Under the pieces are notes generated by a model. That model saw nothing but the letters and a program-made list of their open reading frames with translations. It did not search any database and was not told the origin of the DNA. DNA of 20,000 nucleotides from an uncultured virus (IMG/VR IMGVR_UViG_3300034019_001883) (taxonomy: Duplodnaviria; Heunggongvirae; Uroviricota; Caudoviricetes): IMG/VR virus record IMGVR_UViG_3300034019_001883, positions 56,050 through 76,049 of that record; one strand, written 5' to 3'. This document shows, piece by piece, positions 5,845-16,870 of the stretch. A program made the translations under genes and the position numbers. Within the stretch, counting starts at the first letter, position 1. Each line of letters starts with the position of its first letter.

Positions 5845-6350
5845 TGTTTTTCTTCGTTGACCAAGACAATCAAATTGTTGGTTATTGCAATGACGAAAGC
5901 GTCGGCACTCCGACTGGCTTTTCCTTGGTCGAAGGGCCAGACGCTAGCCGCGACGACCTCTATTACGACGGCACCGCCATTCAGCTAAAGCCCGATCGCC
6001 CCAGCGATACCGCCTATTGGGACAACACCACCAACACCTGGCAGGAGCCACCCCCGCCTCCACCCGCGCCAGTGCTGCCCAACTGGGGCAACCTCGCCGA
6101 TCGCTTGGTGGCTGACATCGACATCCTCGCCATCTTGGCCACTAACCCGTTATTCCCTGCCTTGGTGGGCCGCCTGCAAACCCTGCGCAATGGTGGCGCC
6201 ATGGGTGACCCGGAACCTTTGATAGCGCTCTGGAACCACCAGTCCTATAGCTTCACTGAGGCACAGCTAGATACCCTCAGCGCCATGGCCGAGGATGAGC
6301 ATATCCCGCTAGCGATCACAGCGGAGGGGATGTTAGCAGCTACGTCTTGA
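5844..6350 (+). CDS. Putative tail fibre assembly/chaperone protein
   Basis: Directly after the fibre gene (TAATG coupling). The 'YYDGTAIQLKPDRPSDTAYWDNTTNTWQEP' segment is typical of tail fibre assembly proteins. Confidence 0.6.
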   Translation: MFFFVDQDNQIVGYCNDESVGTPTGFSLVEGPDASRDDLYYDGTAIQLKPDRPSDTAYWDNTTNTWQEPPPPPPAPVLPNWGNLADRLVADIDILAILATNPLFPALVGRLQTLRNGGAMGDPEPLIALWNHQSYSFTEAQLDTLSAMAEDEHIPLAITAEGMLAATS

Positions 6351-6534
6351 AGTAGCGCCAGGTGCCGATCGCACCCCCCGCGATCGCGGCAAGGCCAGCG
6401 GCAAGCATGATTACATCCCCAGCGCGAATTTGCGCCAACATTACTAAAAAGACCCCATAGCCTAGGCTGTGGGGTCTTTGCTTTGACCATTCAAAAGCCG
6501 CCTGGATGGCGGCCAACACCCGCATTAAAGTCAT
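6340..6534 (-). CDS. Small membrane protein (about 2 hydrophobic segments)
   Basis: ATGA overlap with the 6531..7106 ORF. Hydrophobic stretches LGYGVFLVMLA and VIMLAAGLAAIAGGAIGTW. Confidence 0.6.
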   Translation of the reverse strand: MTLMRVLAAIQAAFEWSKQRPHSLGYGVFLVMLAQIRAGDVIMLAAGLAAIAGGAIGTWRYFKT

Positions 6535-7106
6535 TGAGCAAGCGACCTAGGAGAACTGCCTGTCATACTAGCATTATTGCTACTGGCTAGCAGGCGACCG
6601 TAGAAATGGGTGCCGTGGAAGAAGGCTTCTGGCCCCACCACGTTCAGCCAGACTGGAAAGGCGCTAATCGCCCAAAGCGATGGCACGCCAAAAGCAAGCA
6701 TCGACGTCCTCAGGTTGTACGAGTACGCCCAGAAGCCGCCATAACCCAGGGCCAGTACCACCGCTATAGTAACCACGGTCCTCAAGGACCGGCTGACCAC
6801 GTTGTCCGAGCTGAGCCGCTTGATTTCGCCATAGGCCAGCGGTAGCCCCTGGGGGTGGAAGGCAATGCCACTGATCACCAAGCACAGCAAGTCAGTCGCG
6901 ATCGCACTACCGTAGCGAGCGATCATCCCCTCCATGCCCGCCCGGGCGGCCACTGGGGTAAAGTCTACCGTCGCCGCCGCCTTGGCGACTGCACCAATCC
7001 CCACTGCCGAATAGTGGATATTGGTGGCCATCAACAGGGCAGCGATCGCCAGGGCGCCGTAGTTCAGGCTACGGCTAATCATTGGGTTGCGGCCTATCGC
7101 GGTCAT
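6531..7106 (-). CDS. Polytopic membrane protein of unknown function
   Basis: About 4 hydrophobic segments by eye. ATGA coupling at both ends. Confidence 0.75.
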   Translation of the reverse strand: MTAIGRNPMISRSLNYGALAIAALLMATNIHYSAVGIGAVAKAAATVDFTPVAARAGMEGMIARYGSAIATDLLCLVISGIAFHPQGLPLAYGEIKRLSSDNVVSRSLRTVVTIAVVLALGYGGFWAYSYNLRTSMLAFGVPSLWAISAFPVWLNVVGPEAFFHGTHFYGRLLASSNNASMTGSSPRSLAQ

Positions 7107-7750
7107 GATTTTACGTCCTTTATCAACGAAATAATCCGGTTATACTTTTCAGTCCCTTTGGACTGACCAAACACCACAGTGACGATCTTGTTTTGACTAA
7201 CCCCTGCTGTTATCGCCCGCTCCACCCAAACAGACGCATTAACCAACGCCTTGCGATCGCGATAATTAGTAACCTGAGCAGGCGGTAAATGCACTGGAAA
7301 AAAGCATTTGTTTTGCTCCAACCATTCGTTAGGCGGTAGTGTTTCCACCTCACTACAACCGGTTGCTCCACCGGTTGTACAACCAGTTGCTACAACCGGT
7401 TGTAATGCTGGTTGCACCAAGGTTTCAGGGGCATGTGAGGGGGTAGGCTCAGGGGCGGTTGCAGGTGAGTCTATGCCTACCCAGGGGTAACGCTCGATCG
7501 CTTCTATTTCTTCTTTTGAATACTTACGATCTAACTCATCCCAAAATTGCTTAGACGCCGTTGCCCGCACTGGCGGCTTCTCCACTTCAACCCTAGCAGT
7601 AGCCATGGCTGGACTTGCTAGCCAGGGTGAACCCTCCCCGCCTGTTCTCGCCACCAATTCCAGCTGCTCCCGCTCGTTGTCCCATTGCGCAAGCTTAGCG
7701 GCGCCAACACCTAGAGCAAGGAAGAAAAAGAAAGCGATCGCGTTACCCAT
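7103..7750 (-). CDS. N-terminally membrane-anchored protein with putative C-terminal HTH
   Basis: GGAGG RBS before ATG 7750. N-terminal TM (AIAFFFFLALGVGAA), P/A/T-rich linker, and C-terminal 'AITAGVSQNKIVTVVFGQSKGTEKYNRI' resembling a helix-turn-helix. Confidence 0.7.
   Translation of the reverse strand: MGNAIAFFFFLALGVGAAKLAQWDNEREQLELVARTGGEGSPWLASPAMATARVEVEKPPVRATASKQFWDELDRKYSKEEIEAIERYPWVGIDSPATAPEPTPSHAPETLVQPALQPVVATGCTTGGATGCSEVETLPPNEWLEQNKCFFPVHLPPAQVTNYRDRKALVNASVWVERAITAGVSQNKIVTVVFGQSKGTEKYNRIISLIKDVKS
7355..7415. repeat. Tandem array of five 12-bp near-palindromes (consensus ACAACCGGTTGY)
   Basis: ACAACCGGTTGC (7355), TCCACCGGTTGT (7367), ACAACCAGTTGC (7379), ACAACCGGTTGT (7392), AATGCTGGTTGC (7404). 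Confidence 0.85.
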
Positions 7751-7766
7751 ATGCACCCTCCAACCC

Positions 7767-8321
7767 TTAACTACCGGCAATCACCGCCACCAACACACCG
7801 AAAAACAATCCGGCAATAATCATTACCCCGCCGCCCTCGCCTGCCGTCTGGCTGACGGTGATATTAGGGTTTGACTCAACGTAGATATGCTGTGGCTGTT
7901 GGGGCTGCTGCTGTTGGGCCATCATGGCCGCCAACAACGCATCAGAACGCTGTTGCTGTTGAGCCATTAACGCCATCATCTCAGAGACACCTGTAGGTGC
8001 CTCCTGAGGGCGTTGGGCGGCCTGGACGATAGCTAGGACATCAGCGGCGGTTAAGCCGCCTTCCTGGGCCGCAGAAGCGCCGGGAGTGCCGTGGTAATGG
8101 TTGTGGGTTTCATTGTGAACATTAACCACCATGACTGGCAGCCCTGCCTCTTTGCACAGCCGCACAAAGTCAGGGGGATCGTGAGTGATCGCATCCTGCA
8201 GGGTAGCCAAGTTATCAGGGCGACGCTGCACGGGCGGCAATGCCTCCCACGCATGGCGCGCGATCGCCGCCTTTTGTCGTGGGTCAGCAAGCGCGATCGC
8301 TCTCACATCAACGGTTTCCAT
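7767..8321 (-). CDS. Q-rich protein with C-terminal membrane anchor
   Basis: AGGAGG RBS before ATG 8321 (METVDV...). Poly-Q tracts and C-terminal TM VMIIAGLFFGVLVAVIA. Confidence 0.75.
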   Translation of the reverse strand: METVDVRAIALADPRQKAAIARHAWEALPPVQRRPDNLATLQDAITHDPPDFVRLCKEAGLPVMVVNVHNETHNHYHGTPGASAAQEGGLTAADVLAIVQAAQRPQEAPTGVSEMMALMAQQQQRSDALLAAMMAQQQQPQQPQHIYVESNPNITVSQTAGEGGGVMIIAGLFFGVLVAVIAGS

Positions 8322-8628
8322 TCTTCGCCTCCTTCTGCTTGGTGCGAGACATGGCGACAAGTGCCGCCACCGTGAGCCCAGCGCCAGCGGCCAAAATGCC
8401 AGGATCTAACACCGGCCCTGCCATTGGCGTATCAACCGCTGTAGCGCCCTGGGGAATACCTAGCACCTCCGCCTGGCGAGGTTCTTGCCCAGCGCAGTAG
8501 GTAACACCATCTACCTGCACGTGGCTATCGCACTCGCGTAATTTTCGTTGCTCAATGTCTATTGCGGACAGGCACTCACTGGTCGTGCCGTCCTCGTATT
8601 CAAACTGTGTACACTGGCTGGCTTCCAT
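8308..8628 (-). CDS. Small Cys-containing protein with C-terminal membrane anchor
   Basis: Four Cys in an acidic N-terminal part, then TM GILAAGAGLTVAALVAM followed by a basic tail. Overlaps the start of the next gene. Confidence 0.65.
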   Translation of the reverse strand: MEASQCTQFEYEDGTTSECLSAIDIEQRKLRECDSHVQVDGVTYCAGQEPRQAEVLGIPQGATAVDTPMAGPVLDPGILAAGAGLTVAALVAMSRTKQKEAKNGNR

Positions 8629-8657
8629 GGTTTTCGGTCTTTTGAGTGGTGGTTAGG

Positions 8658-8695
8658 AAAGGCGATCGCATAACGGAGGTGCTACGCGATCGCCT
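8658..8695 (-). terminator. Hairpin formed by two HIP1 sites (terminator/attenuator-like)
   Basis: Minus strand reads AGGCGATCGC-gtagcacctccgttat-GCGATCGCCTTT, in an intergenic gap. The U-tail is short. Confidence 0.5.
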
Positions 8696-8702
8696 GGAGC
8701 AG

Positions 8703-9116
8703 TCATTCAGCCTTGCAATCCACCGATGAGGCGGAGGAAGGGCTCAAAGTTGCCTTGCTTGGCTGCCAAGACAACGCGGGCAGTGGTTCTAGGTCCAGGG
8801 CCACTGCCGCCGTGGACTTTGGGAGCGCTTCCAATTGCTCCTGAAGCAACTGCGCTGTGCGCCCCCACATCAGCTGTCCACTCATCGCGGCGGCCAGGAA
8901 GCCAGCATTTTGCTGGGCCACTCGGTCAATAGCCGCGATCGCGGCCTCCTGGATGCCTGCAGCATGGTCCCGCTGTTCTTTTAGCGCTAGCTGGAGAGGG
9001 TGAGAAACAGAAAGGCTGCTTGCCTCATTGGGTACACCCGGACCCGACTGGGTACAGTTGGGTACAGTCGCCCCCGGATTGCGGGGTTGGTTGAGCTTGT
9101 CGGTATTTAGAGCCAT
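8703..9116 (-). CDS. Hypothetical helical protein
   Basis: AGGAG RBS before ATG 9116 (MALNTD...). A/Q-rich helical core. Confidence 0.65.
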   Translation of the reverse strand: MALNTDKLNQPRNPGATVPNCTQSGPGVPNEASSLSVSHPLQLALKEQRDHAAGIQEAAIAAIDRVAQQNAGFLAAAMSGQLMWGRTAQLLQEQLEALPKSTAAVALDLEPLPALSWQPSKATLSPSSASSVDCKAE

Positions 9117-9387
9117 TAGTTTTCTCCTGACGATATTTTTCAACTTGCCTGAGGGTGTAGTCCAACGCCTCTTGGTGGGTGTAACCCCAGCTCATGCACT
9201 GCCCGTAACAAACCAGCGCTAGGGCATCCTCCTGATCCCACTGCCGCCGGCGGCCAGGCTGACCAGGTTCATAGCCCAGTTTTGCCATCCACCGGGATAG
9301 CGTGGAAGTAGGAATACTTCCACGACTCAAACTCTCTGCCAGCAAGGCTTTGAGTTCGGTGTAGGTGTAGGTGACGGTTACTTCCAT
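9025..9387 (-). CDS. MerR/excisionase-like winged-HTH DNA-binding protein (alternative GTG start 9408)
   Basis: 'YTYTELKALL...IPTSTLSRWMAKLGYEP...RRRQWDQEDALAL' matches the MerR-type HTH plus wing pattern. First gene after a sigma70-like promoter. Confidence 0.65.
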   Translation of the reverse strand: MEVTVTYTYTELKALLAESLSRGSIPTSTLSRWMAKLGYEPGQPGRRRQWDQEDALALVCYGQCMSWGYTHQEALDYTLRQVEKYRQEKTNGSKYRQAQPTPQSGGDCTQLYPVGSGCTQ

Positions 9388-9424
9388 GGAACTTCGTGGA
9401 ACTTCCACGCTCTAGGACTCTTGT

Positions 9425-9454
9425 ACTGTAGTTCCGCTATATCCTCCCTGTCAA
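9425..9454 (-). promoter_or_regulatory. Sigma70-like leftward promoter
   Basis: Minus strand TTGACA (9454-9449), 18 nt, TACAGT (9430-9425), upstream of the HTH gene. Confidence 0.6.
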
Positions 9455-9524: not shown

Positions 9525-9773
9525 ATGTTCCCCATCACAGAACCGATGCCTGCTAGCAAGCGGAGACTGAAAGAAATCAAGATCAACGTCCCCGAGGATT
9601 TACTGGAAGACGCCCAGCGATTGTTTGAAGCGATCGGGGTTACTGATGGCGATGGCCACCGCGACGTATGGATGGATGGAGTCTATCGCCTTGCGGAACG
9701 GTACAACAAAATTTTAGTTAGCAGGAAATTACTTAGGGATTCTGTCAAGGCAGACGAAACTGGTGATAATTAA
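9525..9773 (+). CDS. Putative ribbon-helix-helix DNA-binding protein
   Basis: GGAG RBS. 'KEIKINVPEDLLEDAQRLFEAIG' fits the RHH strand-helix pattern. Confidence 0.55.
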   Translation: MFPITEPMPASKRRLKEIKINVPEDLLEDAQRLFEAIGVTDGDGHRDVWMDGVYRLAERYNKILVSRKLLRDSVKADETGDN

Positions 9774-9795
9774 TTCAGTACTTCTACTTACTTCC

Positions 9796-10149
9796 ATGGC
9801 ATTTTTACCACCGCCTCCATTAAGCGCGATCGCGCAACTGATAGCGGCTAACCTTGGCCCGCTTGTGCCCGCCGGCTGTGATATGCAGCTAAAGCGCCAC
9901 CCCAAAGAAGGATATGTAATTTACTTTTATGTAGCTAACGCTACCATCGGCGCTCTTATTGCAAATAATCTTTTATCTGTTATTGGTATTGCTAAAAACA
10001 TAATTCCCCTAACCTCTGTCGAAGTCAGGGGAGGGTTTGAGCTGAAGGTAGATGCAGCACGGCTAGAAAAGCTATACCCTGATGAGACGAAACTGGTGGA
10101 CGGAAGGATTGACCTTGCTCTTAGGGGCTGTGGTTTGCCTCCTTCCTGA
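9796..10149 (+). CDS. Hypothetical protein (AT-rich coding; ORF track start 9763)
   Basis: Open frame of 117 aa from ATG 9796, directly after the RHH gene. No family recognised. Confidence 0.55.
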   Translation: MAFLPPPPLSAIAQLIAANLGPLVPAGCDMQLKRHPKEGYVIYFYVANATIGALIANNLLSVIGIAKNIIPLTSVEVRGGFELKVDAARLEKLYPDETKLVDGRIDLALRGCGLPPS

Positions 10150-10465
10150 TGGTATGTCCGTAAACGTCCATCTCGCCAAGCAGCACTTTGGTCAGGTCAT
10201 CTATTGATGGACGAGCCGTGCTTTCAAAAAAGGTAAATTCCGGCACCCTCGATAATGCCACTAGCACAATCCAGGCCGGAGTTTTTGCCAACCGTCCCCC
10301 ACGGTACAGAATGTCCTTGCTTAGCGGGATGCCAGAGCGATCGCTTATCCACTGGGTAAAATCTGTCCAGGGTAAATTGTCGCGTTTTGCTCTTAAAGCA
10401 TCGACTAACCGCTTAAAGTTGCGGTTGCCCTCATCCGTCACGTAGCTTCTTCGTTCATCAGCCAT
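10121..10465 (-). CDS. Putative XRE/CI-like HTH repressor
   Basis: 'FKRLVDALRAKRDNLPWTDFTQWISDRSGIPLSKDILYR...TPAWIVLVALSR' follows the XRE helix layout. Divergent from the replication arm, like cI. Confidence 0.55.
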   Translation of the reverse strand: MADERRSYVTDEGNRNFKRLVDALRAKRDNLPWTDFTQWISDRSGIPLSKDILYRGGRLAKTPAWIVLVALSRVPEFTFFESTARPSIDDLTKVLLGEMDVYGHTIRKEANHSP

Positions 10466-10516
10466 TTTCAACTACCTACAAGTAACACCCGGTCTATCGC
10501 AATTCTAAACCCCAGT

Positions 10517-10553
10517 TGCAAAAATGTGAAAACTAGCACATTTGCACTACAAT
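10517..10553 (+). promoter_or_regulatory. Operator-like inverted repeat over a candidate rightward promoter
   Basis: AAATGTG-N8-CACATTT (10522-10543) with TGCA on both sides, followed by TACAAT at 10548-10553, in the divergent intergenic region. Confidence 0.5.
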
Positions 10554-10580
10554 GAGGCGCAGTTAGTTGTAGGTGATGAT

Positions 10581-10940
10581 ATGGCCGAGTACAGACGGAT
10601 TGCATTGCCCCGGCGCTATACCCGGGTAGTAATGGGCGCTGCCGCCCTAAAGAACATGAAGCCGATCGCTTACCAGGAGAAAATCCTGGTGGCAGCGGCA
10701 AAGAAGGTGATTGAAGCGGGGCCGGACGGTAAAGGATTTAAGGCGATCGCCCGCAAGCCCGGCGAGCCGAATTTAGCCTTAATCTTTACCAAGGAAGGCT
10801 ACGATACAATCAGGGCAGCCGTTCAGATCGAGGGGTTGAACCCTCCACAATTTGCCGTGAAGCATTTATTGCCCAGGGCGTTCAAGGACATTGAAGCTGG
10901 CTTCAGAGCCATTAAGGCTACCTACGACGGAGCAGCGTAA
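10581..10940 (+). CDS. Putative DNA-binding regulator in the cro position (possibly tandem RHH-like)
   Basis: AGGTGA RBS before ATG 10581. Two similar halves (RRIALPRRYTRVVMGAAALKNMKP and NLALIFTKEGYDTIRAAVQIEGLNP). Confidence 0.55.
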   Translation: MAEYRRIALPRRYTRVVMGAAALKNMKPIAYQEKILVAAAKKVIEAGPDGKGFKAIARKPGEPNLALIFTKEGYDTIRAAVQIEGLNPPQFAVKHLLPRAFKDIEAGFRAIKATYDGAA

Positions 10941-11080: not shown

Positions 11081-11602
11081 ATGAAATACTTTAAGCACGA
11101 TCTTTTGTCCCGCGAAGATGACAAAATTTGGGAACTCATTGACAGCCACGGGATGCAGGGGTATGGCATCTGGTGGGTCATCCTAGAAGAGCTTTATAAG
11201 GCAGAATCCACCGGCTTCCAAGTAGAAGCTACCGACATCTGGCTAAAGCGCCTTAGCCGCCAGCTAGGGTTAAGCGATTGGCTGACCATGGTGCGAACCC
11301 TCGATAGGTTTGCCGAACTAAACCTGATTGATGGGCAACTGTGGCGCGATCGCGTGATCTATGCCCACGGCATCGCCAAGCTGCACAGGGACGGAGCGTA
11401 CAGGAGACACAGAGATGCTGTTTTCGAGCGCGATAGGTATTGCTGTGTTTACTGCAGCGCGACGGAGGATTTAACCCTTGACCATGTGATTCCCTACAGC
11501 AAGGGTGGTTCTGATGAGCCAGACAATTTGGCCACCTGCTGCCGCTCCTGCAACAGCAGAAAACACGCTCGCACACCACAAGAATGGCTAGGAGGTCTGT
11601 AA
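11081..11602 (+). CDS. HNH endonuclease fused to a Lin1244/Lin1753 (DUF4373)-like replication-initiator N-terminal domain
   Basis: N-terminal 'YFKHD...DDKI...HGMQGYGIWWVILEELY'. C-terminal 'VFERDRYCCVYC...LTLDHVIPYSKGGSDEPDNLATCCRSCNSRK' is a canonical McrA-type HNH. GAGG RBS. Confidence 0.85.
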   Translation: MKYFKHDLLSREDDKIWELIDSHGMQGYGIWWVILEELYKAESTGFQVEATDIWLKRLSRQLGLSDWLTMVRTLDRFAELNLIDGQLWRDRVIYAHGIAKLHRDGAYRRHRDAVFERDRYCCVYCSATEDLTLDHVIPYSKGGSDEPDNLATCCRSCNSRKHARTPQEWLGGL

Positions 11603-14634: not shown

Positions 14635-15498
14635 ATGGACATTGACGTAAAGCGCTTATCAGATGAACTTCTCGAAATCCGGATGCGCTACACCGGGGAG
14701 GAGACCCAGCACTTTTTGTTAGCCTCAGACATTCACCTGGATAACCCAAAGTGCGATCGCAAGCTATTCTTCTCTCACCTCGATAAAATGAAGGCTCTCG
14801 GTGGTAGAGCCTTATTTTTTGGCGACGTGCTATGCCTGATGCAGGGCAAACGCGACAAACGCGGCAGCAAGTCCAGCATCCGCCCCGAGCACCAGGGGGC
14901 CAATTATTTTGACTTGGTATTCAAAGAGTCTGCCGATATTCTTGGCCCCTACGGCAAAGAAATTTTGATGATGGGCAATGGCAACCACGAAACTGCCATT
15001 ATCAACAATCAAGAGGTGGACCCACTCGCTAACGTAGTGCAGCAGATGCGCGATCGCCATAAGGCGGTTACTGAGCACATGGGTTACCAGGGCTGGGTGC
15101 GCTTTGTGTTTTACAAGCAACGGGGCAATGGCGTTGAAAAGGTACGACGCTGCACCCTGTTTTTTCACCATGGCGCCTGGGGCGGCATTGTCACCAAAGG
15201 CACCATGGGCGGCGGTCGCTATGCCAGCATCGCCCCGGATGCCGATATTATCGTCAATGGCCATAACCATGAACGCTCTATTGTTAGTCACCCCTGCTAT
15301 CGTTTGGCGGAGACCGGCAAGGTAAAGGTAACCCCGCGATACCATGTTCAGACCGGCACCTACAAAGAAGAATTTGAGGGCGGCAACGGCTGGGCGGTGG
15401 AGCGCATTGTCATGCCGAAAAGCCTCGGCGGCGTCTGGCTGAAGCTTACCCCCGATCGCCAGTCAGGCGTTACCGTATCGCTAGAGCCCGCTGTCTGA
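14635..15498 (+). CDS. Calcineurin-like metallophosphoesterase
   Basis: All five motifs present: SDIH, GD, GNHE, HHG, GHNH. Likely start ATG 14635. Confidence 0.88.
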   Translation: MDIDVKRLSDELLEIRMRYTGEETQHFLLASDIHLDNPKCDRKLFFSHLDKMKALGGRALFFGDVLCLMQGKRDKRGSKSSIRPEHQGANYFDLVFKESADILGPYGKEILMMGNGNHETAIINNQEVDPLANVVQQMRDRHKAVTEHMGYQGWVRFVFYKQRGNGVEKVRRCTLFFHHGAWGGIVTKGTMGGGRYASIAPDADIIVNGHNHERSIVSHPCYRLAETGKVKVTPRYHVQTGTYKEEFEGGNGWAVERIVMPKSLGGVWLKLTPDRQSGVTVSLEPAV

Positions 15499-16821
15499 CG
15501 GTTGCTTATTGGCAATAAGCTTTAACCGCACCTCCACCACTTCATTCCCCTGCAAGATCACTCGCTCCACCAATTCCGCGTAAATTTCCCGGCGCCTTAC
15601 CACCGGCAATAAGTTTAGGTCCGCCTGCGCGATCGCCATTGTCTTTTCCCGTAGCTCTTGCTGGTTAGCACTGGCATAGCTTGCCATGCCCGCCAAGGCT
15701 TGTAGCTCCGCCTCGATTTCAGCTATCTCTTCGGCGATCGCCGCCCGGTGGGCCAAAGGTCGAAGTGCTTCTAGTTCTCGCTCCAGCGCGATCGCCTGCG
15801 GGTTCACCGTCGAGGGCTGTAGCATATCCGCCGCGATCGCCTCGGCGGCCTCTACCAACGCCTCCTGAATGGCTGCTTCAATGGCATCCTGGCGGCAAGA
15901 ACGGGTGTAGGAGCATTCCCGGTCATGGTAGTCAGCTTTGGCCGCACAGGCAAAATAGCGATGGCCCCGGCGGATAAGCGCACGGCACCGGCAGCCACAA
16001 ATACAGGACACAATAGGCGGCACCGCATGGATGCGTCCTTGATTGTTGCCGCGCAACTGACGGTTGAGGCTAATCAGGTATTCAATACGCTTGTACTCTT
16101 CTTCGGTGATCAGTGCTGGGTGGGTGTTGTAGCGCCACTCATCAGTTTTGGCATAGTGCAAATGCCCCCGTAGGGCAGCACTACGCAGCCACCACCGCCA
16201 ACCCGCTCGAGACTTATAAAACCCGTAGCGCCCCTCCATGTGGGCTGACAATGCCATCAGGTTGCCGTGCTCTAGGTAAAATTCTATCGCCGCCCTTGCC
16301 TTTGCCCACTCTGGCCCCGGCTCATAGCGGCTACCGTCTAGCGATCGCTGGTAGCCAAAGGGAGGCGGGCCACACATGGGGCGCCCCTGTCGCCTCATCT
16401 GGGCATAGGCGCGCTGGATGCGCTCGCCTAGTTCTACCGAATAGTAGTGGGCCATCAGCGACTTAACGCCAGTGGTGAGCAACCCTGAGGCGGTTTGTAG
16501 CGTGATCTCCTGGCCAGTGGTTAGCTCCTTCACCTGCACGCCCGCCGCCTCCAACTGAGCCAAGCTTTCCATCGAATAAACCGTATCCCGTGCCCACCGG
16601 GTCCACTCAATGACCCATACTGTAACTAAATGACGTTGACCACGGAGGTCCAATGCCCGTTCCACCATGCGCAAAAATTCAGGGCGATCGCGCCTGCGCC
16701 CTGACAAATTTTCAGCAAACAGTTCATCAAACTCAAGCTGTTGCTGAAATTGCTGCATCTGTAATTCCAGGCTTTGCTCTTCAGTCGATACCCGCCCGTA
16801 GCAAAGTTGATAGTGTGCCAT
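15481..16821 (-). CDS. Large serine recombinase (integrase; XisF-like)
   Basis: Catalytic YGRVSTEEQ, SGRRRDRPEF, PPFGY recombinase domain, Zn ribbon (CICGC...YFAC...C) and coiled coil. ATG 16821 preceded by GAGGGG. Confidence 0.93.
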   Translation of the reverse strand: MAHYQLCYGRVSTEEQSLELQMQQFQQQLEFDELFAENLSGRRRDRPEFLRMVERALDLRGQRHLVTVWVIEWTRWARDTVYSMESLAQLEAAGVQVKELTTGQEITLQTASGLLTTGVKSLMAHYYSVELGERIQRAYAQMRRQGRPMCGPPPFGYQRSLDGSRYEPGPEWAKARAAIEFYLEHGNLMALSAHMEGRYGFYKSRAGWRWWLRSAALRGHLHYAKTDEWRYNTHPALITEEEYKRIEYLISLNRQLRGNNQGRIHAVPPIVSCICGCRCRALIRRGHRYFACAAKADYHDRECSYTRSCRQDAIEAAIQEALVEAAEAIAADMLQPSTVNPQAIALERELEALRPLAHRAAIAEEIAEIEAELQALAGMASYASANQQELREKTMAIAQADLNLLPVVRRREIYAELVERVILQGNEVVEVRLKLIANKQPSDSGL

Positions 16822-16870
16822 GGTCAATCCCCTCTCCAATTTCAGCGTACTACGCCGCATCTAAAAGGAG

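Follow-up and report, generated by a model that had tools for sequence, protein, structure and literature searches.

A candidate motorless TraB/FtsK-like DNA translocation module on a temperate cyanophage

Seven minus-strand open reading frames (ORFs), g1–g7, span positions 6340–9408 of a 20,000-nucleotide stretch of uncultured caudoviricete DNA (hereafter the window), which forms the last 20 kb of the 76,049-base, 72% complete IMG/VR virus record IMGVR_UViG_3300034019_001883. Their core is a conserved gene module in which one protein, g5, joins an N-terminal membrane anchor to a small C-terminal domain that we also find on membrane-anchored FtsK-like ATPases. Because this end domain is common to both and the ATPase is missing from g5, g5 is, as judged from sequence, a motorless relative of such TraB/FtsK-like translocases, and we read the operon as a putative motorless DNA translocation module, carried as an early or lysogeny-side accessory of the phage. 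The module is real, conserved and, as far as we have searched, undescribed, and the mechanism proposed below is plausible. No published description of it or of a TraB-like cyanobacterial system was found in a mostly open-access literature without supplements, so prior mention is possible. The contig encodes a serine integrase (15481–16860), a terminase, a replication initiator and baseplate/tail proteins and is therefore that of a temperate cyanophage; GCGATCGC, which we take to be the HIP1 octamer of cyanobacteria, occurs 157 times in it, and the host is probably a thread-forming cyanobacterium.

The g5 gene (7103–7750) encodes 215 residues, comprising the anchor, a disordered linker and a three-helix C-terminal domain, and AlphaFold likewise places a helix at the N-terminus, leaves the middle disordered and models the end domain with confidence. 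Modelled alone, the latter folds into helices 28–47, 51–58 and 66–79 (pLDDT 77), and its structure matches include the DeoR helix-turn-helix (HTH; Z 4.3, rmsd 2.0 over 47 residues) and KorB (Z 4.1, rmsd 2.1 over 42), both on a par with unrelated bundles. Neither model had a Foldseek match, the ESM Atlas yielded nothing usable for the domain, and FtsK gamma was not among the structure-match (VIA) results, which excludes nothing. A profile of the end domain (A10), run on 173 genomes of one cyanobacterial order, that of genome G001, found 34 places in 30 genomes, all of which we read, treating G078:C6 as a duplicate of G078:C1. Four of them fuse the domain to a membrane-anchored P-loop ATPase, 27 are ATPase-less and three are cut by a contig end; loci L070–L073 have the domain on membrane-anchored FtsK-like ATPases. 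A g6-type membrane protein gene directly follows the domain in 27 of the 34 places (11 of a first type, 16 of a second), with g7 next in 15; a polytopic membrane gene lies just upstream in six of the remaining seven, and a g6 homologue (E 1e-9) comes after the ATPase form of L070 as well.

In line with this assignment, FtsK is the best match of the ATPase profile among solved structures (E 6.6e-5), the Pfam FtsK_SpoIIIE score (22.8 bits) lying below its cut-off of 24. The ATPase profile was found in 47 of the 173 genomes; the g5 domain closes 19 of the 26 further ATPase loci inspected, many of them near-copies of one element, as well as the ATPases of pDU1 and of three other named plasmids (E 2e-10 to 7e-7). 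Searches with the window's own C-terminal region yielded no longer g5 relatives, the ATPase fusions surfacing only through the profile, and an ATPase query found no match among GenBank phages. Two further arrangements were seen around the motor: L095–L116 represent an element present in as many as 6 copies per genome, whose ATPase with the g5 domain is embedded in a series of single-helix membrane genes that do not resemble g6 and form a third partner set; and in L098 and L117–L120 the same ATPase bears a different C-terminal domain, the end domain thus being swapped on the motor too.

The second constant of the module is g6 (6531–7106), a four-helix membrane protein with an invariant R and N-x-H-x-S, Y-x-[FY]-D and GPE motifs, a candidate channel or scaffold; it is followed by g7 (6340–6534), a 64-residue membrane protein with a W-x4-P-x3,4-YG motif and the lowest dN/dS of the operon. 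The order g1–g7 is intact in five IMG/VR phages (L001–L005), and a plasmid-like contig, L006, has a seven-gene run in matching order with ~30–45% identity for g4–g7, next to genes for ParA, a prim-pol replicase and a restriction enzyme, virion genes being absent among the ORFs read. The order g4-g5-g6-g7 is kept in G032 and G053, both prophages judging by their neighbour genes (read by eye), and in metagenome contig L010, with variable genes upstream: an actin-like gene and a small partner in G032 and L010, an HTH and a coiled-coil gene in G053. The earlier note on this DNA had treated the seven genes as one unit. Homologues do stay clustered in relatives, yet what is conserved is a smaller unit, a core of g5 and g6, often with g7, in which g1–g4 are exchangeable. 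ParM-like actin genes were also noted upstream of the module in both prophage and integrative contexts (L012:11407-12904, L010:2346-3734, L072:6478-7482, L083:3522-4502); CorMR of multicellular cyanobacteria is chromosomal and ParMR-derived (10.1101/2025.06.27.661541).

The g6 profile matched 3 of the 173 genomes, and g6 relatives number 8 among 1.84 billion representatives. The g7 profile matched 9 of the 173 and led to a second group of modules, carried by elements with an integrase, in which a different four-helix family stands between a g5-like protein and g7. Kinship of the two g6-type families is not claimed, since their profile-profile comparison gave no significant alignment (probability 0.6%), a result that also weighs against spread with a borrowed motor, proposed below. 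For the second family the ESM Atlas returned two clusters, one mostly cyanobacterial (0.92) and one from Chloroflexota (0.88), as a lead only. In a phylum-wide sample of 401 genomes, the g6 profile had one match (G001 itself) and the g7 profile three, two of them weak and within long unrelated frames; few candidates were scored per genome, so absence is not implied. Neither a relevant Pfam match for 13 g6 and 8 g5 members, nor a hit in viral scans with distant g6 alignments, nor a real tblastn match among plasmids for g5, g6, the second-type g6 or the second-type domain was found. Members of the second group show further variation: in L031–L034 a gene for an FHA-domain protein with a C-terminal membrane helix lies on the opposite strand just downstream of g7, converging on the cassette; the cassette block of L031 is duplicated in tandem; and the second-type g6 gene at L084:4276-5002 is in two frames in G165 and intact in the near-identical G164, reflecting sequencing error or decay.

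In the window, the earlier description of seven mostly overlapping genes holds: four of the six junctions overlap (by 92, 14, 4 and 4 nt), the remaining two being gapped by 74 and 16 nt. Hydropathy segments (0, 0, 1 C-terminal, 1 C-terminal, 1 N-terminal, 4 and 1 for g1–g7) likewise agree with the membrane layout proposed for g3–g7, namely two C-anchored, one N-anchored, one polytopic and one small protein, the single hydrophobic run of g7 (35 residues) being long enough for two helices. All seven genes are real and under purifying selection, with dN/dS against relative L005 of 0.26, 0.20, 0.14, 0.12, 0.20, 0.12 and 0.05. Nothing significant was found for them in Pfam, PHROG or NCBIfam, the sole PADLOC match being a weak one of g1 to mad1, and the absence of any enzyme or ATPase motif from the seven proteins, noted earlier, stands after these scans. 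RNA data consist of one metatranscriptome at share 0.06, in which a relative's contigs cover g1 (9021–9365) and the tail genes equally, which gives no evidence on expression either way.

These data bear on whether the operon is a lysis cassette (holin, antiholin, spanin) or the remnant of a decaying transfer region. Small membrane proteins adjoining the end of the tail genes and the loss of the g5 motor would fit such a view. The operon nevertheless opposes the structural genes in strand, Pfam and PHROG scans found no holin, spanin or lysis family match for its proteins, the module is present on non-phage elements, and the selection acting on all seven genes speaks against decay, so that we hold this alternative to be highly improbable. 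The operon is opposed to the tail genes (ending at 6350) and points away from the replication genes.

If g5 recognizes DNA, its target may lie within its own gene. The g5 linker contains an array of CAACC/GGTTG (ACAACCGGTTG; 7319–7419), with 8 copies within 100 nt from position 7319, the densest spot of the 76-kb contig; the copies lie on both strands and in 4 strand/frame phases, and the palindromic CAACCGGTTG has two of its three contig copies inside g5. We regard the array as a candidate cis-acting binding site. CAACC occurs 9 times in the linker versus 2.5 under synonymous recoding, a comparison that used uniform codon usage and a motif picked after the fact. Such arrays are not confined to the window: in the 249 bases ahead of the domain, surveyed in 27 loci (2 of 29 were left out for lack of an anchor and read separately), most loci repeat a 5–6-mer on both strands and in several frames, and the synonymous-recoding null was exceeded (p < 0.05) in 17 of the 18 loci tested, L085 being the exception, with motifs chosen post hoc. 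The motif appears to follow the domain. GAATT is common to eight loci with one domain type, including two ATPases, several of whose linkers do not align; L035, whose g6 is of the other family and whose domain identity is 34%, has CAACC like the window; motif and domain similarity correlate over the 27 loci (Mantel rho 0.48) and over the 13 whose linkers do not align (0.33, p 0.0016). A residue-to-motif code, by which G-N before the first helix would specify GAATT, was true in eight loci, was broken by L087 and was rejected as a rule. A separate word, CCTGAA(A)N-CCTT, precedes the array in the g5 linkers of the window, L012, L010 and L035, and takes the form CCTT-N7-AAGG in L012 and L010.

The same features allow one to weigh whether g5 is instead a ToxR/CadC-like membrane-bound transcription regulator, in a system where g6 and an outer cysteine domain (supplied by g3, or by a fusion in relatives) sense an envelope cue to control induction of the element. 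Among the 16 places with a second-type g6, most proteins consist of a cysteine-bearing N-domain, one membrane helix and a DNA-binding-like end, as such a sensor would. The motif array, however, is intragenic rather than at a promoter, and the domain is derived from, or common to, translocase-type ATPases, which makes a regulatory function improbable.

DNA recognition by a translocase-type protein would recall the TraB/Spd systems of Streptomyces, to whose spd loci the earlier note had likened the operon. As described in PMC4447253, TraB reads direct 8-bp clt repeats of its own plasmid, the spd genes are organised in operons with overlaps, SpdB2 is a pore former with four membrane helices, and spdB2 homologues are reported on some actinophages. 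Similarly to TraB, g5 relatives combine a membrane anchor, an FtsK-like ATPase and a small C-terminal domain, short repeats that may play the part of clt lie on the element, and the named hosts of the ATPase form are multicellular; unlike TraB, g5 itself is missing the ATPase, its end domain is modelled as three helices without a wing, and the cyanobacterial module resides in a Gram-negative envelope. In contrast to the direct 8-bp repeats of clt (PMC4447253), the g5 array consists of 5–6-mers in both orientations and within a gene. Resemblance to spdB3-spd79-spdB2 of pSVH1 extends to small membrane genes with overlapping stop and start codons and one four-helix member, whereas g6 is devoid of SpdB2's long soluble domains and no TraB was found on the phage element. 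No Spd family sequence match was found in Pfam, PHROG or NCBIfam; as the Spd proteins are themselves diverse according to PMC4170104, this lowers the case for membership and not that for analogy.

A further parallel is SpdA2/sps of pIJ101, where the palindrome that SpdA2 binds, with an effect on stability, is located in the protein's own gene (PMC4170104), much as CAACCGGTTG lies in the coding region of g5. SpdA has 117–163 residues and an N-terminal binding domain, whereas the longer g5 has a C-terminal domain and is membrane-anchored; and sps is one conserved 12-mer, whereas the motif of g5-type arrays differs between elements. Membrane anchoring of SpdA is not borne out by PMC4170104, which mentions no membrane segment. 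Overall, the module would work like the TraB/Spd/SpdA systems but is no member of them, the ATPase being absent from the cassette and a Spd sequence match from the searches.

The Streptomyces analogy is supported by the occurrence of the g5 domain on FtsK-like membrane ATPases and by the restriction of the named plasmids that carry these to filamentous genera; neither a motor in the 72% complete phage contig nor sequence kinship with Spd was found. Two ATPase queries returned 11 and 22 plasmid records (33, pDU1 being filed twice) from 13 genera, namely Nostoc, Tolypothrix, Trichormus, Calothrix, Scytonema, Aulosira, Microchaete, Fischerella, Leptolyngbya, Pseudanabaena, Allocoleopsis, Moorena and Annamia, all of which (33/33 records) are filamentous. 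A control query with ParA of L006 gave 11 plasmid records, six of them in unicellular genera, a difference with p 7e-5 by records and, by genus (0/13 vs 4/7; calculated by hand), p ~0.007, for a single control and queries from one lineage. The pDU1 protein (Nostoc PCC 7524, WP_011666303.1), used as a query, added 12 records from genera already among the 13. It shares true homology with the g5 end domain (E 3.8e-7), and small co-oriented genes lie upstream of its gene; unlike g5 it has the ATPase, and it is annotated only as an ATP-binding protein, shows no g6 neighbor in the annotation and has a weak motif array.

That the module holds DNA at the membrane, for spread and as a segregation tether taken jointly, we consider probable. 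More tentatively, and still as a serious possibility, we propose that it is a DNA capture and membrane module for phage spread along the filament with a borrowed motor. The g5 domain would bind its own linker array and thereby capture phage DNA, whether excised or in replication, at the membrane; the membrane part would consist of g6 together with g7, g3 and g4, in the role of SpdB2, Spd79 and SpdB3 in Streptomyces; the DNA would be passed through the cross-wall into the next cell of the filament; the motor would be supplied on loan by an ATPase-bearing element that shares the host; and g1 would repress the operon via GGAAGT repeats. A bolder and rather unlikely extension is that a system for spreading double-stranded DNA, similar to that of Streptomyces, exists in filamentous cyanobacteria, composed of an FtsK-like ATPase, a four-helix membrane partner, a self-encoded repeat site and a changeable recognition domain and present even on pDU1, and that temperate phages and satellites with the motorless adaptor hook their genomes to the borrowed motor and so colonize the filament without virions.

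Several observations weigh against spread with a borrowed motor. An ATPase of the g5-domain family was not found in the window's own record (72% complete), in three related phage records (G572–G574, 73–87% complete) or in G001, and 13 of the 26 genomes with a motorless or cut form showed none; in the pSVH1 system, TraB is required for spreading (PMC4447253). The g5 end domain lacks the wing strand seen in FtsK gamma, and its best structure match (Z 5.4) is to an unrelated bundle. A clear array is absent in ~9 of the 27 loci, the best motif of pDU1 occurs there only 3 times, and the motif rule failed out of sample, with CCCAT rather than GAATT in L087 and no CAACC in L085 and L086; as the linker adjoins the domain, co-inheritance alone can yield part of their co-variation. 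Known septal junctions pass small molecules, and the literature found does not show DNA passage along a cyanobacterial filament. Finally, for the motorless form we infer filamentous hosts.

The ATPase-less places, intact as they are, are also what one would expect if g5 were a segregation tether only, binding its own-gene array and, with g6 and g7, pinning an extrachromosomal phage or plasmid copy to the membrane for keeping and sharing at division, with no wall crossing and no motor. Partition-type genes are often upstream: L012 and L010 have a ParM-like actin with a small partner (weak Pfam MreB-like/ALP, E 0.01–0.05), L072, L083 and L084 have actin-like genes (motif seen) and L006 has a ParA/ParB-like pair; moreover, SpdA2/sps acts on stability, not transfer (PMC4170104). 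Most carriers, however, are integrated with their own integrase and as lysogens need no tether, and a tether explains neither the conserved four-helix membrane partner nor why no plasmid of a unicellular genus was seen with the ATPase form. We consider a tether alone credible but on the unlikely side.

An ATPase was found elsewhere in 13 of the 26 genomes with a motorless or cut form versus 34 of the 147 others (p 0.008, a soft value because kin share elements). This excess fits spread with a borrowed motor and would also suit exclusion or jamming, in which DNA of superinfecting phages is kept out by the membrane proteins, or g5, having no motor, is a dominant-negative subunit and poisons competitors' ATPase machines. 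Anchor and end domain kept with the motor dropped have just such a dominant-negative look, and the operon has an early or lysogen position and direction, divergent from the replication genes and beside regulator genes. Exclusion, the main alternative in the earlier note, does not need an own-gene motif array that tracks the domain; the module occurs also on elements with no virion genes close by, both plasmid-like and small integrative ones; and PADLOC, PHROG and NCBIfam scans gave no exclusion or defence match for g2–g7, although exclusion proteins share no defining sequence. We deem this reading quite unlikely.

The module bears on a standing question: a review suggests that cyanobacteria may use an uncharacterised transfer system (PMC4379921), T4SS-type systems are described as found later in cyanobacteria (PMC3158045), and a 2026 preprint gives no more than hints that phages spread from cell to cell in Anabaena (10.64898/2026.02.14.705889). 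The module supplies candidate genes and a candidate DNA site for plasmid and phage movement within or between cyanobacterial filaments, and as the ATPase form is on pDU1, a replicon already in use in Anabaena PCC 7120, the question is testable with existing tools. If the borrowed-motor proposal is true, a phage that keeps the DNA-recognition and membrane parts and drops the motor would represent a new way of parasitising transfer machines; a plain tether would still leave an undescribed domain family with a swappable DNA motif.

The exchangeable genes precede the core. g1 (9025–9408, possible start ATG 9384) encodes a soluble MerR/excisionase-like HTH candidate, matched to PADLOC mad1 at E 6.6e-4, and a homologue occupies the corresponding position in L006 (shuffle p 0.002). 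The HTH calls of the earlier note thus draw weak support, from this match for g1 and, for the g5 end, from three helices with HTH-like but non-significant structure matches. g2 (8703–9116) encodes a soluble helical protein of 137 residues without a family match, and the L006 gene in its place cannot be aligned to it (p 0.98). g3 (8308–8628) combines a four-cysteine N-domain, a C-terminal membrane helix and a basic tail; it has a homologue in L006 (p 0.002) and compares with the cysteine N-domain fused to the g5-like proteins of L031 at just p 0.03. g4 (7767–8321), a helical N-domain with a Q/P-rich linker and a C-terminal membrane anchor, is retained ahead of g5 in L006, L010, L012 and L015.

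The three repeat arrays noted earlier are indeed clusters inside genes, made up of short motifs rather than long tandem arrays (TRF scores 38–81). Apart from that in g5, a GGAAGT cluster in both orientations lies over the g1 start (9303–9407; 4 of 17 contig copies within 9304–9401, one further copy at 9790), keeps its four copies in L001, L003, L004 and L005, and is a candidate operator of g1. TGTACCC(A) occurs three times in the g1/g2 overlap (9029–9068; 3 of 11 contig copies of TGTACCC within 9030–9066) and, down to one copy in L005, is the weakest of the three clusters. The sigma70-like promoter of the earlier note is present upstream of g1 as TTGACA-18-TACAGT (9425–9454, minus strand; 10/12 consensus positions), but with 16 such sites in the window versus 14.3 in shuffles it is a consensus match only.

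At the other end of the operon, the end of g7 overlaps the converging tail-region gene, and a near-perfect 16-bp inverted repeat within g7 (6448–6479) opposes the converging tail transcript as a possible terminator. Between the operon and the replication genes lie three small genes, 9525–9773 (plus), 10121–10471 (minus) and 10542–10940 (plus), 94–100% identical in L001–L004 and without a family match, which are probably the immunity region, without a recognisable CI repressor. The gene at 11081–11602 encodes a Lin1244-like N-domain fused to HNH and is followed by a separate replication initiator; in L005 a single 440-residue frame seems to span both places with the HNH missing, which suggests that the HNH is a mobile insertion. 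The serine integrase gene lies mid-genome between the replication genes and the terminase and does not adjoin the operon. Elsewhere in the record, several long ORFs (G000:C1:2488-48442 and 55339-56463) have a common short N-terminal leader ('QLGLFG', 'HNEGDTK/QQGETR...RW'), a repeated domain family of the phage, and the ORF at G000:C1:9586-10707 reads like what we presume to be an RpoD-type sigma factor ('LLTPTQEIELGRQVQ').

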